Source: Bdellovibrionota bacterium (lineage in GTDB: Bacteria; Bdellovibrionota_C; UBA2361; OMII01). Taken from it: 18,499 nucleotides of DNA. The stretch spans positions 1 to 18,499 of the forward strand of contig JBIKWQ010000068.1 of NCBI GenBank assembly GCA_044356215.1, read 5' to 3'. The notes beneath the pieces are model-generated. The model searched no databases. It was not told where the DNA came from and worked only from the letters and a program-made list of their open reading frames with translations. Below are positions 5,192-18,499 of the stretch, piece after piece (the stretch's first letter is position 1; every line of letters begins with the position of its first letter). Both the position numbers and the translations under genes were made by a program.

Positions 5192-5443
5192 AATTTAATG
5201 TTGGGCGGTTTAACTCTTGAGTTCCTAACCTCTGCGATCCTCTGCGTGCCTCCGTGGTTTCCTGCTGCCCGGGGTATTTAGGGTAGAACCACAGAGGAGC
5301 ACAGAGTAACACAGAGAAGGATATGTGCTGTAATTTAATACTGGGCGCGCTAACTCTTTAGGTCCTAGACTCTTAGATCCTCTGCGTACCTTGGAGGTCT
5401 CCTCCTACCCCGAACCTTTAGGGTGCAACCACAGGGCACGAGG
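5192..5443. repeat. Degenerate tandem duplication (period 140 bp) made of alternately oriented ACCACAGAG..CAGAG palindromic units (BIME-like array)
   Basis: AATTTAAT..TGGGCG..TAACTCTT..TCCTA..GATCCTCTGCGT..TTTAGGGT..AACCACAG starts at both 5192 and 5332. Units lie at 5230-5259 (-), 5287-5316 (+), 5370-5399 (-) and 5427-5443 (+, partial). Confidence 0.75.
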
Positions 5444-8423: not shown

Positions 8424-8674
8424 GGAAGGCCGGCAAAACCTAACCGTAGCGAGAAAGTGGAGGTTGAGTTGATATTCGATTTTCGAGATGGAAAAAAACC
8501 GCACCAGACTACGCCAAGGCTACGTCTGGTCCTACATTATCTCGCCGGCCGTAGCTTTAGCGAAGGTCGGAAGTGTATCCCCTGTGATACATTGAGGATT
8601 TTTTCCCATCTCGAAAAGTCGAAGAGCGACTCAAGATCCGCTTTCGCAGTAGGGATGGGTTTTGCCGGCCTTCC
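8424..8674 (+). mobile_element. 251-bp IS5-like MITE, copy 1
   Basis: Perfect 17-bp TIRs GGAAGGCCGGCAAAACC (8424-8440, 8658-8674). 4-bp direct repeat CTAA (8420-8423, 8675-8678). 8 mismatches versus copy 2. No transposase. Confidence 0.93.
8503..8570. repeat. 68-bp REP-like inverted doublet nested in MITE copy 1
   Basis: Hairpin units ACCAGAC-TACGCCAAGGCTAC-GTCTGGT and CCGGCC-GTAGCTTTAGCGAA-GGTCGG share the core CT(T/A)CGC(T/C)AA(A/G)GCTACG in opposite orientations. The module is absent from copy 3. Confidence 0.8.
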
Positions 8675-11088: not shown

Positions 11089-14000
11089 TTAAAAATAATC
11101 TTTCAAAGAATCTACTCCGCGAATCCGAGCACCATCCGGAATCATCGAAGATCCGGGCCCCTTCTGTTGAGCACCCAGCCACTCGATGATACTTCCAATA
11201 GCTTCCCTTGCGTTCGGCGCGCTACCCAAGCTGGCCGCTTTAAGGTTGAAATATTGGGAGCCAAGAACGAACTCCAACAGGGTCTGCATCCCTACCGCCA
11301 TGATAGGAGCACCATCTGGTCCCCTTTGGTACATATGGTACTGGGCAAACCGACGGTCGCCCGTAGCGACAACTACTGGACACCCCCCTGGTAAATGTCG
11401 GCACAAATGCGTTATCGCCGTATCTCCCAACTGCGCATTGAAATAACGACTCGCAAAGGACGCGACGTGGTCAACTCCTTTCTTCCACGAATTGTTTAGA
11501 TGAACTTCCGCTTCTTCAAACAGAACCTTATCTTCTGGCCTATAGACGATCGCGATCTGGCTCGCGCTACCATCTGTTATTGGTGTACCACTCGGATCGT
11601 TTGATAATCTTACGTGAGCTACCTCATCAACAAACTTTTGGATATTTAATTTGCTAGAATAGTTGTAGGTCTTTATGTCAGCCGTCTTCACCGCTCCCGA
11701 ATCATCTAACCACCAGGCACTACCACTAACTTCAAAGAGAACACTCGCGGGGATGTACACTCTTTTATTCGCTCTCTGCGCAAATGCTTTTAAAACGCCA
11801 AGATAAGTCACGTCTGGTTGCGTCGCGTCAATCGGAGCCAACAAAACTATAAGAACCGAAGAATCAACGATTAAAACGCTGCTATTCTCGCTTGGTATTA
11901 CACTTAAAGCCGAAGCCGCTCTCTTTGCCTCACGACGCTCCTGAACAAGCTGAATGGTCTTCTGCAGCTCACCTTCGCGTATCCTCTCCTGCTCCTGCTC
12001 ACCTAGAATCCGACTAATCTCATTAAATTTCGATGATGGAATGTATCCGCTATTTCCAGATACTAAATCCTTACCTTCCCTAGTAAACCTCCACCCCGCG
12101 TCATTGGCGACATAAACCATACCAACTCGTGCGGCGAGATTCTTAAGCTCGCTTACTTTATGTAGATACGACTCAAGGGCATACAAAGCTCTTTCAAGCT
12201 TGTACGACTCCCGCTTATCAGGGTTAAGCACCTCGTTGATCTGACCCGGCTCGAACTTGACTTGAATCACCGAGCCCCCAGATTCTCTAATGACAATTCC
12301 CTCAACAAGTGACTCAAGAGCTTTAGAGTTGTCGTCTAACAAGATCTCCTGTCTCTTTTTTTCGATCTGTTGATCTATTATCCGAGCATCATCCTCAAGA
12401 CTAGTAAATTTCTTGGCTTTGACGCTAAAATTTACCCTCTCGTCATTTCGTAAAATGACCAGGCATTCGCCCCTCCTTGAGTCCCAATCGAGTATCAATC
12501 CGGGATGATTCACCTCAAGCTGAGGGAAGTAGGCGGGCTTAATCTGTATCTTACTAGCCGTCGGCTGATCTGCATTTACCTCTATCAGCAATGCTTTCAC
12601 TCGCCTCTTTATATTTAAATCTCCTAAACGGCTAAGAATTCGACTCTTGAATTTATCTTCGTATTTATCATCTCTATTTTTCGTCAAAATCGAGCTCTGT
12701 CTTCTTGTGAGATAGGTCTCAACCTCACCTGAAGAGAGAAGAAGCGTCGCCACGAGGACTCGAGTGTCAGGATCCTCGAGAAAGACCGTCTCTATCTGAG
12801 TCTTTATGTAATCGCTCTCGTTATAAACTTCGCTCACACCTGTGGCTATTCGATCAAGAGCCTCGTCAGTGGGTTGTCGGTATTCGTTCAGGTATTTCGC
12901 CTCTGGAAAGCCATAGCACCGAATAAGCCGAGTTAGGTTCTCCACCGAGAGAACTGCATCTACTAATTTTTTTACCTTTGGATCTCCTAGCTCTGCTGGA
13001 ACATCCCCGCGGTAATCAAGAAGACTAACAACACCAAACAACGACTCTAGAGCTTCTCGCTTTCTACTAAATTCTTGAGTCAAACCTACTTTTGTCAGCT
13101 TCTCTAAAAAATCTTTTGAATCAAGCGCGCGAGGAACCTCCTGGAATTCGCTGTGAAACTTTATGAGCTTTTCTTGCTTCTCTTGATCGGCCCTGATCCC
13201 TGCCTGCTCTTGGGCAATTTCATTTGCCCGATCCAACCTAGCATTTTCCTCAGACACCCTCTCGAGTTTAGCCTTCAGCTTTTCCCTTTCCCTAACCGTC
13301 TGCTTCACGTAACGATCAATTTGCCCGGACGCCCACTCGACAAAGGCGTTCTCTGAATCATTATTAAGCACAACCTCATCTAGATCGATCAGGGAGGAAA
13401 ACGTATCCTGACAGGCGCCCTCCGTGAAGGTTCTGAGTAGAAAAACAGGAAGCCTAACTGAGGTCTTGAGAAATGCGCCCTCTGCTTCGGTGATGGGAAT
13501 AGGGCTTTCGTCTCTACCTAACAGCCATCTTAAAGAAAATCTTCCAGTTAATTCAGATTGGCCTAGTACCCCCCTCAGATGCTCGACTTTTCGCGCATTT
13601 TCGGTTCTGGCAAGCCATCCGTTAGCCTCAGGCCCAACGCTCTCCACCAGTCGCTCAGCGAATTGGTCAAAACTCAACGATGACTGCGATGCAGCCGAGA
13701 AAAATCTCATAAATTTTGTTATTCTACTTCCAGGATTCGGCTCCCCTAGATCTCGCAGACGACTCGCGTAATCCGGGTACAAAGCCGAATATAAAGCAAA
13801 TGCGAACAGCACCGACGACTCCTCTCGCGTAGTTTTGTCCTCTGAATTTTCACAAAAGAACTTGGGGTAATAAAAAGCCGCCCAATGAATTGCTCTGTTA
13901 GCCATGACATCATTCACTAGCGAATTTTCGATATCCCGGCTAGGGAGTATCCCTATATCGCATGCCCCTGAGATATATCCTAGGCTACGAGCCCAGTCGA

Positions 14001-14352
14001 TAAAAGCAGTCTTATCTTCGTTGAAGAAAATTCTGACTATGTTTGTTTGAATCAAAGCTGCCTTTTGGAAGAAGAGACGATGAGCCGTTTTTTGGATCTC
14101 GCTCATGTCGGGATGCGGCATAGGCATCTGCCCTTCAAGATCCCTCGGAATCAGGGCCAAGTTAACCACGTAGCATAGGTTACGGGCCGATTCTTCCAGG
14201 CCTCTTAGTAAGTTTCTTCGAACTGCGTAATCTTTAAAATCCGGCACCTCCTCCTGCTGAGGCGACGTAATCCTAAACGCCTCTATACCAACAGGCTCAC
14301 GGATAACGATATCGCCCGCTGTATAATTTCTTTCATCTTTTATCTTTGTCAT
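11089..14352 (-). CDS. Large (1087 aa) protein with unrecognised helical/coiled-coil N-terminal and central regions and a C-terminal PIN-like nuclease domain
   Basis: Long intact ORF. C-terminal motifs VLIVDSSVL, VYIPASVLFEV, LGDTAI, VVVATGDRRF give the four acidic PIN residues in canonical order. Coiled-coil-like stretches such as REREKLKAKLERVSEENARL. No signal peptide. Confidence 0.75.
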   Translation of the reverse strand: MTKIKDERNYTAGDIVIREPVGIEAFRITSPQQEEVPDFKDYAVRRNLLRGLEESARNLCYVVNLALIPRDLEGQMPMPHPDMSEIQKTAHRLFFQKAALIQTNIVRIFFNEDKTAFIDWARSLGYISGACDIGILPSRDIENSLVNDVMANRAIHWAAFYYPKFFCENSEDKTTREESSVLFAFALYSALYPDYASRLRDLGEPNPGSRITKFMRFFSAASQSSLSFDQFAERLVESVGPEANGWLARTENARKVEHLRGVLGQSELTGRFSLRWLLGRDESPIPITEAEGAFLKTSVRLPVFLLRTFTEGACQDTFSSLIDLDEVVLNNDSENAFVEWASGQIDRYVKQTVREREKLKAKLERVSEENARLDRANEIAQEQAGIRADQEKQEKLIKFHSEFQEVPRALDSKDFLEKLTKVGLTQEFSRKREALESLFGVVSLLDYRGDVPAELGDPKVKKLVDAVLSVENLTRLIRCYGFPEAKYLNEYRQPTDEALDRIATGVSEVYNESDYIKTQIETVFLEDPDTRVLVATLLLSSGEVETYLTRRQSSILTKNRDDKYEDKFKSRILSRLGDLNIKRRVKALLIEVNADQPTASKIQIKPAYFPQLEVNHPGLILDWDSRRGECLVILRNDERVNFSVKAKKFTSLEDDARIIDQQIEKKRQEILLDDNSKALESLVEGIVIRESGGSVIQVKFEPGQINEVLNPDKRESYKLERALYALESYLHKVSELKNLAARVGMVYVANDAGWRFTREGKDLVSGNSGYIPSSKFNEISRILGEQEQERIREGELQKTIQLVQERREAKRAASALSVIPSENSSVLIVDSSVLIVLLAPIDATQPDVTYLGVLKAFAQRANKRVYIPASVLFEVSGSAWWLDDSGAVKTADIKTYNYSSKLNIQKFVDEVAHVRLSNDPSGTPITDGSASQIAIVYRPEDKVLFEEAEVHLNNSWKKGVDHVASFASRYFNAQLGDTAITHLCRHLPGGCPVVVATGDRRFAQYHMYQRGPDGAPIMAVGMQTLLEFVLGSQYFNLKAASLGSAPNAREAIGSIIEWLGAQQKGPGSSMIPDGARIRGVDSLKDYF

Positions 14353-14750: not shown

Positions 14751-15905
14751 ATGTTCTTAAGAAGTCTTAACCTTATAAAATCTAACAGTTTTTTTCTATT
14801 CGGGGCTCGCGGTGTTGGCAAAACTACCCTGCTTGAAAACTATTTTCCCCCTGATGAAGCGTTGGTCTTAGACCTCCTTGATTCTGAACTTCATGCTCAG
14901 CTAGAAGCGCGGCCGGGGCGATTAAGAGACTTGGTACTTCAGGCTTGTAAGGAGTGGGTTATTATTGATGAGGTGCAGAAGGTTCCTCCATTGTTGGATG
15001 AGGTGCATTCGCTGATTGAGAGTAACAAGCAGAAATTCGCGCTCACCGGATCGAGCGCGAGGAAATTAAAGCGCGGCTCGGCAAACCTCCTAGCCGGGAG
15101 GGCTTTTGTATTCAATCTATTCCCGTTAACCCATATCGAGCTTGGGGATCATTTTCAATTAGAGAGTATCCTAACTTACGGGAGCCTACCGAAGATCTTT
15201 GAATTACAATCCGCTAGAGAGAAGATCCTGTTTCTGAAAGCATACGGCGACACGTATCTCAAAGAGGAGATCTTAATAGAGCAACTGATCAGAAACCTCC
15301 CACCTTTTCGCAAGTTCCTAGAGGCTGCCGCTACGCAAGATACCGAGCCAGTGAGCTACTCATCAATTTCGCGTGATATTCTAGTCGATCCAAAGATTGT
15401 CAAAAACTACTATTCAATCCTTGAAGATACCCTGCTCGGTTTTCTGCTTGAGCCGTATCACACATCACTTAGAAAGCGACAAAAAAACTCACCGAAATTT
15501 TACTGGTTTGATTTGGGCGTTAGAAGAGCACTCACTGGTAATATTGATTATGAGATCACCCCAGCCTCGTTTGAGTTTGGGGCGCTTTTTGAATCTTTTA
15601 TTGTCAATGAAATCCGCAGAATCCTTTCCTATTCTGAGAGGAGCCATTCTCTCTCATTCGTTCGGATCGACGAGAATTTGGAGGTGGATTTAGTAATTGA
15701 GCGTCCTGGGTTGCCGACATATCTCATTGAGATTAAATCTACCGATCGAGTTCATGAAGCTCATGTGAGGTCACTAAAAAAGTTCTCCCCGGAGATAAAG
15801 AGCTCGGTGCCCGTGCTACTTTCGCGAGATCCGATATCAAAAAATATCGACGGTGTAAGCTGCTTTGAGTGGCGCCGCGGATTGCGGGAGATCGGGATTG
15901 TTTAA
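14751..15905 (+). CDS. AAA_14-family ATPase with DUF4143 and a C-terminal PD-(D/E)XK nuclease-like region
   Basis: Walker A GARGVGKTT, Walker B VIIDEVQ, LTGSSA, LLAGRA, YGSLP, PKFYWFDLG, GALFES, EVDLVIE...IEIKS. Confidence 0.93.
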   Translation: MFLRSLNLIKSNSFFLFGARGVGKTTLLENYFPPDEALVLDLLDSELHAQLEARPGRLRDLVLQACKEWVIIDEVQKVPPLLDEVHSLIESNKQKFALTGSSARKLKRGSANLLAGRAFVFNLFPLTHIELGDHFQLESILTYGSLPKIFELQSAREKILFLKAYGDTYLKEEILIEQLIRNLPPFRKFLEAAATQDTEPVSYSSISRDILVDPKIVKNYYSILEDTLLGFLLEPYHTSLRKRQKNSPKFYWFDLGVRRALTGNIDYEITPASFEFGALFESFIVNEIRRILSYSERSHSLSFVRIDENLEVDLVIERPGLPTYLIEIKSTDRVHEAHVRSLKKFSPEIKSSVPVLLSRDPISKNIDGVSCFEWRRGLREIGIV

Positions 15906-16089: not shown

Positions 16090-16340
16090 GGAAGGCCGGC
16101 AAAACCCCTCCCTACTGCGAAAGCGGATCTTGAGCTGCTCTTCGAGCTTTCGAGATGGGAAAAAATCCTCAATGTATCACAGTGGATACACTTCCGACCT
16201 TCGCTAAAGCTACGGCCGGCGAGATAATGTAGGACCAGACGTAGCCTTGGCGTAGTCTGGTGCGGTTTTTTCCCATCTCGAAAATCGAATATCAACTCAA
16301 CCTCCACTTTCTCGCTACGGGTAGGTTTTGCCGGCCTTCC
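16090..16340 (-). mobile_element. 251-bp IS5-like MITE, copy 2 (inverted relative to copy 1)
   Basis: Same 17-bp TIRs (16090-16106, 16324-16340). Direct repeat CTAG at 16086-16089 and 16341-16344. Confidence 0.93.
16194..16261. repeat. 68-bp REP-like inverted doublet nested in MITE copy 2
   Basis: Exact reverse complement of 8503-8570. Copy 3 has the empty junction GATACACTT|GCGGTTTTTT. Confidence 0.8.
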
Positions 16341-16462
16341 CTAGGGGAAGTTACCTTCCCCCTTTCTTTGGACACCCATCAGATAGAAAAATCTGGGTTC
16401 AGCACCTCGTCACATACCGCTTAAGCAACTTTCCCCTCCCCTTTTTCGAACACTCCCTGTGT

Positions 16463-16696
16463 ATGCTACGCCGCTACACTTGGGAGAGTCAGAAGAAGAA
16501 GCTCCAACACTATAAACGACGCCAGCCAGAGACTTCTGTACTGTACCAGATCGTGTACCACGGGCACGAAGACTTACAGCACGTCTGGGAGCCCCGATTC
16601 CAGCACCAGTATGGGTGTTCAATACAAGACGACATCGACACCTACACAACCAAAGACGGGGCCGCACATGAGTTCGATACTCTAGAGTTTCTCGCT
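16463..16696 (+). pseudogene. Internally deleted IS91-like (Y2/rolling-circle) transposase remnant
   Basis: YKRRQPETSVLYQIV...W..RFQHQYG resembles the N-terminus preceding the IS91-type zinc-binding domain. It joins directly to TYTTKDG..HEFDTLEFLA, which resembles the C-terminal (F/L)DPLEFLA motif. The zinc finger and HUH core are missing. Confidence 0.7.
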
Positions 16697-16937
16697 GATC
16701 CGATTAATCTCTGCCGAAACATCATAACCATCATCGCCACATCTTCGAACGGCTACCAGAGCTTAGCTACTTATAAAAAAGGAATTGATCTTCCTAGCCC
16801 TAAAATTCCACGCGCCGTAAAATCTGCATTCATGATAGAGGTAGGCCCTAAGCGCAGAATCGAGATAATACTGCAAATTGCCGAGAGATTGGCAGGACTT
16901 TGCCTCTGATGAACTCGACTGTCATCTTTTGGGGTGC

Positions 16938-18086: not shown

Positions 18087-18364
18087 CTCTCCTATTCCGA
18101 GAGGAGTCATTCTCTCTCATTCGTTCGGATAGATGAGAATTTGGAGGTGGATTTAGTAATCGGGCGTCCAGGGTTGCCGACATATCTCATTGAGACTAAA
18201 TCTACCGATCGAGTTCATGAAGCTCATGTGAGGTCAGTTAAAAAGTTCTCCCCGGAGATAAAGGGCTCGGTGTCTGTGCTACTTTCGCGAGATCCGATAT
18301 CAAAAAATATCGATGGTGTAAGCTGCTTTGAGTGGCGTCGCGGATTGCGGGAGATCGGGATTGT
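18087..18364 (+). pseudogene. Diverged duplicate of the 3' end (15624-15901) of the AAA_14/DUF4143 gene
   Basis: 278-bp ungapped alignment at offset 2463 with 16 mismatches, 11 of them at third codon positions. No 5' part of the gene upstream. Confidence 0.92.
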
Positions 18365-18371
18365 GAGTTAG

Positions 18372-18499
18372 GGAAGGCCGGCAAAACCCCTCCCTGCTGC
18401 GAAAGCGGATCTTGAGTCGCTCTTCGAGTTTTCGAGATGGGAAAAAATCCTCAATGTATCACAGGGGATACACTTGCGGTTTTTTCCCATCTCGAAAAT
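18372..18499 (-). mobile_element. IS5-like MITE, copy 3 (short variant lacking the 68-bp module; cut by the window end)
   Basis: TTAG (18368-18371) then GGAAGGCCGGCAAAACC. Colinear with copy 2 except that 16194-16261 is missing at junction 18475/18476. Confidence 0.9.

Follow-up and report, generated by a model that had tools for sequence, protein, structure and literature searches.

How palindromic repeats of 30-70 nt reach new sites is a long-standing question, which has been answered partly and for RAYT-linked REPs only. SsnA of Neisseria meningitidis (cd10448) is described in the main text of PMC11893778 as binding its hairpin solely as single-stranded DNA and making its cut a few nucleotides upstream, and there Chenal et al. 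(2025) themselves compare the NTS-ssnA-NTS arrangement with IS200/REP systems. REP heterodimers and homodimers inside other palindromes were reported from A. variabilis, H. neapolitanus and T. roseum (Di Nocera et al. 2013, PMC3733652); according to the text of this REP survey, bulged repeats may have escaped it.

Here we analyse a stretch of 18,499 nt from a Bdellovibrionota bacterium (the window), in which a 68-bp module made of two inverted hairpin units interrupts a hairpin, H, of a MITE. We think it probable, though by no means certain, that the module is a pair of widespread hairpins lodged in the MITE hairpin, and that it represents an orphaned recognition site for a tRNA-end GIY-YIG nuclease. 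The stems of the unit covary, clean filled and empty sites pair up at unrelated targets, the unit is linked to one nuclease clade, its head is built on CCA, and in this genome the doublet has spread with the MITE only. What is new is that the doublet is heterodimeric and dispersed, that its junction is defined and that filled and empty sites are available in large number.

The pair of unit and nuclease works like Ssn/SRM and like REPIN/RAYT and is a member of neither. As in the Ssn/SRM system of the PMC11893778 main text, a small single-domain GIY-YIG gene (here 79 aa, PF01541 above the cut-off) is flanked by an oriented cognate hairpin repeat, here at 22 of 38 loci, which is also dispersed. 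However, the SRM consensus given in that text is matched by none of 461 units, nor by the module. The 79-80-aa nuclease falls outside the SRM-flanked clade (100/100), with E 1e-7 at best and ~33% identity, SRM-flanked proteins serving as stand-ins for the Ssn clade in place of SsnA itself. In contrast to SRM, a 3x3 internal loop is part of the hairpin, which ends in a 3' tail of the CRAG type, and its home is the CCA end of tRNA or tmRNA, whereas the word 'tRNA' occurs 0 times in the main text of PMC11893778. Moreover, filled and empty insertion sites are present here, and none was noticed in that text.

The module resembles the REPINs presented in the text of Bertels and Rainey (2011, PMC3116915) in being an inverted doublet of short palindromes with constrained spacing that can fold as one hairpin, in its excision footprints and in the dedicated small enzyme gene beside the repeats. 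On the other hand, the partner here is a hydrolytic GIY-YIG nuclease and theirs a tyrosine transposase, single units are also cleanly inserted, and the doublets of the source genome are confined to one host hairpin, while those of other taxa have many hosts, often repeats. No cognate RAYT is flanked by the unit (one of four Y1 loci has one, 550 bp away). Unlike REPs, the hairpin carries no GTAG or CGTC tag at its foot; the tails are of the CAAG/CAGG type, and GTAG is limited to the stem interior of one strand. The GTAG/CGTC REP dimers in the text of PMC3733652 provide a precedent for an element inside an element, with the difference that, in the present case, REPs of the CGTC and GTAG types serve as hosts into which the doublet is inserted.

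The module, its host and the insertion site

The features of the window that concern the module are the following.

8424..8674, minus strand: MITE copy 1, filled, 251 bp, TTAG on both sides
16090..16340, plus strand: MITE copy 2, filled, 251 bp, bounded by 17-bp terminal inverted repeats with CTAG next to each
18372..18499, plus strand: MITE copy 3, empty and truncated where the contig ends; empty junction 18474/18475
16160..16271, plus strand: host hairpin H, ~52 bp when empty; loop 16179-16184, 3' arm interrupted by the module
8504..8571, no strand assigned (copy 1 is on the minus strand): 68-bp doublet module of MITE copy 1, letter-identical to that of copy 2
16193..16260, no strand assigned: 68-bp doublet module of MITE copy 2; alternative 16194-16261 by a 1-nt ambiguity, register taken from relatives
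16194..16223, plus strand: unit 1, 30 nt; 5-nt stem, CTTCG, CTAAAG inner hairpin, CTACG, 5-nt stem, CGAG tail
16231..16260, minus strand: unit 2, 30 nt; 5-nt stem, CTACG, CCAAGG inner hairpin, CTACG, 5-nt stem, decayed tail
16670..16671, plus strand: unoccupied target of a single unit; its homologue in congener G021 holds a clean 31-nt unit insertion

In general, the two complementary halves of a 5-nt stem enclose an inner hairpin that has CTWCG before and after it, and a CAAG/CAGG-type tail completes the unit. Unit 1 of the module is followed by a 7-nt spacer and by unit 2 in inverted orientation, with the tails pointing inward and the heads outward; the base preceding the head of unit 2 is A on the minus strand. 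The module can fold as one hairpin or as two (folding z -1.0 and -1.8 for the module alone), and the empty H folds strongly (z -8.6). An Rfam search of the window gave no meaningful match.

A first-pass annotation of the window, made from the letters alone, had described an identical module in copies 1 and 2, its clean absence from copy 3 and two related, inverted hairpin units with a shared core, and all three observations were borne out. Copy 3 is continuous at 18474/18475, with a 1-nt T ambiguity, and exact matches to the core number 96 in the genome (68 within the MITE, 28 outside), whereas each of two mononucleotide shuffles gave 0, which excludes chance; a reversed control pattern, used in the search of the genus, had 0 matches in the source genome. 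The module itself stands where it had been placed, at 16194-16261, but its register moves to 16193-16260, since in the relatives G015 and G048 it starts with a different base (C or A), which sets the junction before the T. The insertion site had been assigned to the loop of the MITE; it lies instead in the 3' arm of the nested hairpin H, 8 nt 3' of the loop. The further proposal that the doublet inserted without clear target duplication and spread with the MITE, giving filled and empty sites, holds; the genome has 33 filled and 44 empty junctions. Beyond one ambiguous base there is no target duplication: several pairs have a 1-nt ambiguity and the copies of G015 and G048 have none at all, and therefore none is called. 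A 1-nt target duplication, considered as a candidate, was not adopted on account of the same two relatives. The module is flanked by an imperfect 4-nt direct repeat (TCCG/TGCG), which is perfect in the copies of a second MITE family (B) in G011 and G022.

IS5-group MITEs have short terminal inverted repeats starting with GG, a 4-nt target duplication of the YTAR type, no coding capacity and dozens of copies. The host element is like them in its short GG-starting inverted repeats, its YTAR-type flanks, its non-coding nature and its dozens of copies; it differs in being layered, as a 131-bp core plus H plus two kinds of passenger repeat. H is a separate layer, absent from the 131-bp minimal MITE of congeners and present in family B. 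The genome holds 53 complete copies, 29 of them empty (182-184 bp) and 24 filled. According to a count by eye, the 4-mers on the two sides are identical in 35 of the 53 and unlike in 18, and the unlike flanks fit ageing, recombination or mis-joined repeats. An autonomous IS5 partner with the same ends was not found in the draft assembly with one Pfam family (PF01609), whose single match in the genome has other ends; no ORF lies behind the one stray MITE end examined. The terminal repeat of the MITE recurs on numerous very short derivatives and on types with a different interior (C15, C17, C23, C27, C48, C127 and others). At C18, C48, C109, C58 and C89, and also at the congener loci L051 and L191-L195, the loop of H carries an insertion of a second repeat family (CTTCGGCGAGCTCAGTCGAG), either single or doubled; related repeats flank another GIY-YIG group (L041, L248).

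Filled and empty copies

In 23 of the 34 congeners, exact empty sites add up to 528, compared to ~20 filled ones, and the doublet is therefore the derived state. Doublets are seen at the same site in seven congeners (G003, where it is decayed, G011, G015, G019, G022, G046 and G048). They are mostly 57-71% identical to the doublet of the source genome, with 83-90% in family B of G011; the insertion is old. A 115-nt block of H plus doublet is common to the source genome and family B of G011, at up to 92% identity. This block crossed between MITE families, and because it is shared, the doublet in family B of G011 need not have moved alone.

Single units insert too, and the doublet is not the sole mobile form. 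In MITE family B we found a clean 30-nt single-unit insertion with 7 filled and 24 empty rows, from loci that partly overlap. The empty site at 16670/16671 of the window lies inside an IS91-type transposase remnant, and a further clean filled and empty pair of a single unit was seen in a duplicate of the tRNA-Asp 3' end.

The source genome (3.24 Mb) is a short-read draft of 131 contigs, many of which break at the MITE, and junctions were counted genome-wide from local haplotypes, giving 44 empty and 33 filled. Of the empty junctions, 42 read TGCGG; the two that read TCCGG are C126, an empty copy with a slippage-type junction, and one diverged copy. In assembled contigs from public lake-water runs the empty joint is present in three of four runs (X1, X3 and X4, with none listed for X2), as a skip of 68 in X1; in X3 and X4 the skip is 70 and TC stands in between, which is a known allele. 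These contigs support the joint at the level of the family, no record spanning copy 3, which ends at the contig end, with both flanks. Copy 3 is an ordinary member of the commoner, empty class, and the two explanations offered against an insertion have fallen away. A misassembly of copy 3 or a single derived deletion is rejected by the 44 empty junctions together with the empty joints of the public contigs, and a motif confined to the MITE with one short copy is at odds with the 28 cores outside it and with the same 44 junctions. The search beyond the MITE, recommended at the outset, succeeded for the core and not for the doublet, as none of the 37 doublets of the source genome lies outside H.

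In a tree of module-stripped backbones, the filled or empty state is unclustered (21 changes, compared to ~17.7 in shuffles), with at least six changes forced by well-supported branches, and a single clade of filled copies is rejected (p-AU 2e-59, in a test that assumes no recombination). An alignment and tree of copies had been proposed for polarising the event; it found the two states intermixed, and the polarity came from the empty sites of the congeners. Two filled copies have identical empty twins, five haplotypes within 15 nt of the junction were found in both states, and a divergent subfamily (99/99) includes both states, with diagnostic bases within read length on both sides. Moreover, the spacer type and subtype of the module are inherited together with the left flank allele (11/0 vs. 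3/16, p=7e-6). The shared haplotypes and this tie speak more for recurrent loss in filled parents, or for conversion, than for recurrent new insertion, and many present empty copies are probably secondary losses or conversions, not pre-insertion sites.

Could the doublet be no more than a passenger of the MITE? The link to the nuclease, described below, would then be real, the doublet would have arrived once, and its later history would consist of MITE transposition, slippage and gene conversion via H, the nuclease playing no part after the arrival. We give this account not quite an even chance. The confinement of all doublets to H, the inheritance of the module subtype with the left allele and the block in common with family B of G011 all speak for it, as do the imperfect 4-nt flanking repeat with one slippage-type scar and the low identity of the congener doublets, G011 family B excepted. 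On the other hand, slippage should yield both junction types, whereas 42 of the 44 are of one clean type (later amplification can skew this), and the state changes forced by well-supported branches also count against a passive history. The passenger account is compatible with the explanation that we prefer in that the two agree on origin; they differ only on present-day activity.

It is improbable, although to be taken seriously, that the intermixing is partly an artefact of assembly, in which the arms of near-identical repeats were mixed and only two old lineages exist, one filled and one empty. The number of contigs and their breaks at the MITE, the complete lack of clustering of the state and the unlike 4-mers of 18 complete copies are in line with such mixing. 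However, it does not account for near-junction haplotypes found in both states, nor for a divergent subfamily whose diagnostic bases are read together with the junction on both sides, and the rejection of one filled clade, under its assumption of no recombination, also stands against it.

The unit in other bacteria

The hairpin unit was found across many bacteria, where singles and similar doublets are cleanly inserted in other repeats. The doublet had been called mobile, and these clean insertions elsewhere uphold that view; jumping of the doublet on its own in the source genome does not follow, given the old insertion and the confinement to H. Tail-to-tail doublets are present in at least 122 metagenome stretches and four viral ones, with at least 123 distinct doublets in at least 126 loci. 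Among the matches listed, the gap is 21-28 nt in 98 of 123 distinct doublets (18-40 nt allowed; 25-26 nt in the source genome), and CCAAGG/CTAAAG heterodimers make up 97 of 121 doublets and 18 of 21 clusters, where ~46% would be expected from single-unit frequencies. A tRNA accompanies 14 and a GIY-YIG gene five of the 126 doublet loci among the matches listed, and at five motif-picked doublet loci tRNA, doublet and nuclease occur together. The inner stem of viral units is Watson-Crick paired, CCAAGG or CTAAAG, in 104 of 113 distinct copies, and the outer stems pair 3.2 of 4 compared to 2.5 when shuffled, as covariation predicts.

For 18 of 116 doublets the fetched data include the exact empty junction, a figure that is neither a rate nor unbiased, the pool being enriched for one host by our own probe. 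The hosts of the 18 are this MITE in five cases (not independent), a CGTC-type REP in 12 and a GTAG-type REP in one. Hairpins host 62% of short doublets compared to 21% for mismatched flanks, and 9 of 21 clusters compared to 15%, with one cluster contributing 54 of the 92 doublets and amplified hosts over-sampled. One head is preceded by A in 62 of the 92 doublets, a preference that weakens after clustering to 10 of 21 vs. 3-9 at control offsets. A 15-nt probe for a second CGTC-type host gave four viral matches, all unrelated. Literature searches with the unit motif and GIY-YIG terms returned no paper on the unit family from the text within their reach, which took in neither figures nor most subscription papers.

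Several further placements of units were observed in the source genome. At C4:7826, C33:19789 and C123:30710 a GC hairpin 3' of C-type-lectin-like gene ends holds one or two units in its loop, a layout which we take to resemble a diversity-generating retroelement. The hairpin with the unit on C123 adjoins a four-helix-bundle gene, and unit-free versions are present on C33 and C64; no clean filled and empty pair was found for the unit at these hairpin-loop loci. Gene-less units with longer inner hairpins are clustered at tRNA-Ser/Arg, -Ala/Pro, -Lys, -Leu and -Val (C20, C26, C12, C52 and C84). Three genomes (C60:16047-16120, L232 of G007 and L234 of G013) share an inverted tRNA-Asp 3'-end duplicate in which a unit occupies the same position, with a different stem variant in each.

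A GIY-YIG nuclease at tRNA ends

The genome has two PF01541 matches, one in a 622-aa frame and one in a stand-alone 79-aa gene (G000:C75:3773-4012). The latter lies ~20 bp upstream of an array of units, the other end of which probably follows tmRNA on another contig, as indicated by a 60-nt repeat overlap of the contig end. Among 38 relatives of this nuclease, chosen by protein alone, a generalised unit lies within 300 bp of the gene at 22 loci (30 units in 21.7 kb); beyond 700 bp there is one unit in 53.3 kb, and 50 shuffles gave 0. A tRNA or tmRNA gene is present at 28 of the 38 loci, and in 22 of these 28 the first three bases of the unit are the CCA of the tRNA. Several loci have a tails-inward pair between tRNA and gene.

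A protein tree of 54 rows (82 columns, many forks unresolved) contains three groups, each with its own repeat. The nuclease clade comprises 44 rows (100/100), with units at 26 (three of them motif-picked) and SRM at none; the SRM-flanked Ssn-like proteins form a separate clade with SRM at 7/7 and units at 0; and the third group is a small grade with a second repeat type. The GIY-YIG fold is assigned from Pfam, residues and secondary structure: the catalytic-type residues Y5, Y17, R27, H31 and E63 are invariant in 36 rows, and the model is compact (pLDDT 97). A search of NCBIfam with the nuclease gave no match, and a PDB sequence search only weak ones to SLX1 and UPF0213 (E 0.02-0.03). The strict unit is absent from 16 of the 38 loci, including a whole 5-row subclade in the source genus. 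A nuclease near dispersed units was found at 0 of the 80 viral loci examined (of 126 found), and the nuclease query matched in 11 of 34 congeners and in none of the doublet-carrying G011, G019, G022 and G046 (drafts 76-97% complete). Taken together, we hold it very likely that the unit family and the 79-80-aa GIY-YIG clade are partners, and the proposal to look for a nuclease gene flanked by the units has thus led to a candidate. The unit-less subclade of the genus (L246, L247, L254-L256) has other GC-rich hairpins upstream.

The unit could also be a host signal at the level of RNA, for tRNA 3' processing or as a stabilising trailer, that is copied passively. The pairing of the unit stem with the encoded CCA at 22 of the 28 loci and the G-T pairs tolerated by some stems would suit such a role. 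However, a strict CCA-fused head is present at only two of the 45 tRNA/tmRNA genes of the source genome, most copies lie within other repeats and in either orientation, and Rfam has no match in the window, which leaves this explanation very unlikely. A classical REPIN moved by a RAYT or another HUH transposase, IS91-type remnants nearby included, is largely refuted and hardly probable: the doublet does fold as one hairpin or two and lacks a target duplication, the genome has four Y1 transposase matches and several units stand in IS91-like remnants of congeners, but the latter are insertions into the remnants, a unit lies within 1.5 kb of only one Y1 gene (at a tRNA duplicate, 550 bp off, the two being separated by a different GTAG repeat), and the linkage to the GIY-YIG gene, which in its stand-alone form adjoins units, is far tighter, so that the RAYT/HUH partner first suspected has to be given up. 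An array of GTAG-tagged repeats at C60:16200-16520 immediately precedes a Y1 (RAYT-like) gene.

A possible mechanism and its implications

Under the explanation that we prefer, an orphan nuclease site, the nuclease would, by analogy with SsnA, bind the folded single strand and nick at the head of each unit, which may be read as a tRNA end preceded by A. GIY-YIG enzymes hydrolyse DNA and do not join it; insertion would therefore need host repair or template copying, either of which might complete it in exposed single-stranded hairpins. As the heads point outward, the two predicted nick sites would be the two junctions, and repeated clean loss from MITE copies could follow. Replication slippage at the hairpin base or conversion between copies would give similar products. 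By the same analogy, the nuclease may mobilise the unit and the doublet; that it causes the present-day loss of the module in the MITE is doubtful.

If the mobility were driven in this way, a 79-residue nuclease that does not join DNA would bring about both insertion and repeated precise excision, dozens of togglings having occurred at one MITE site. The doublet heads would mimic the CCA end of tRNA, and the repeats would form a REPIN-like class without a transposase that parasitises REPs, MITE hairpins and tRNA fragments. We put this forward as a speculative reading that we rate as unlikely. The unit family with its candidate enzyme would also place, next to Ssn, a second specificity class among tiny ssDNA nucleases; should the nuclease play no part, what is left is a nested repeat of the ordinary sort, albeit unusually widespread. 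For the question of how such repeats move, the unit family offers exact junctions at several independent targets and 77 filled and empty copies of one site in one genome. Because a candidate enzyme can be named, a single small protein and a handful of oligonucleotides are enough for putting that question to the test.

Other features of the window

Positions 16409-16700 are an internally deleted remnant of an IS91-type element (Y2 transposase) that matches G000:C24:5975-6991, which carries PF04986; sequencing depth in the public runs is raised over it. The 278 bp at 18087-18364, which directly precede MITE copy 3, are a 94% identical duplicate of 15624-15901, the 3' end of an AAA+/DUF4143 ATPase gene (14751-15905). 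An ORF of 1087 aa at 11089-14352 on the minus strand has no Pfam match, and a pair of 103-nt direct repeats is located at 5192-5434.
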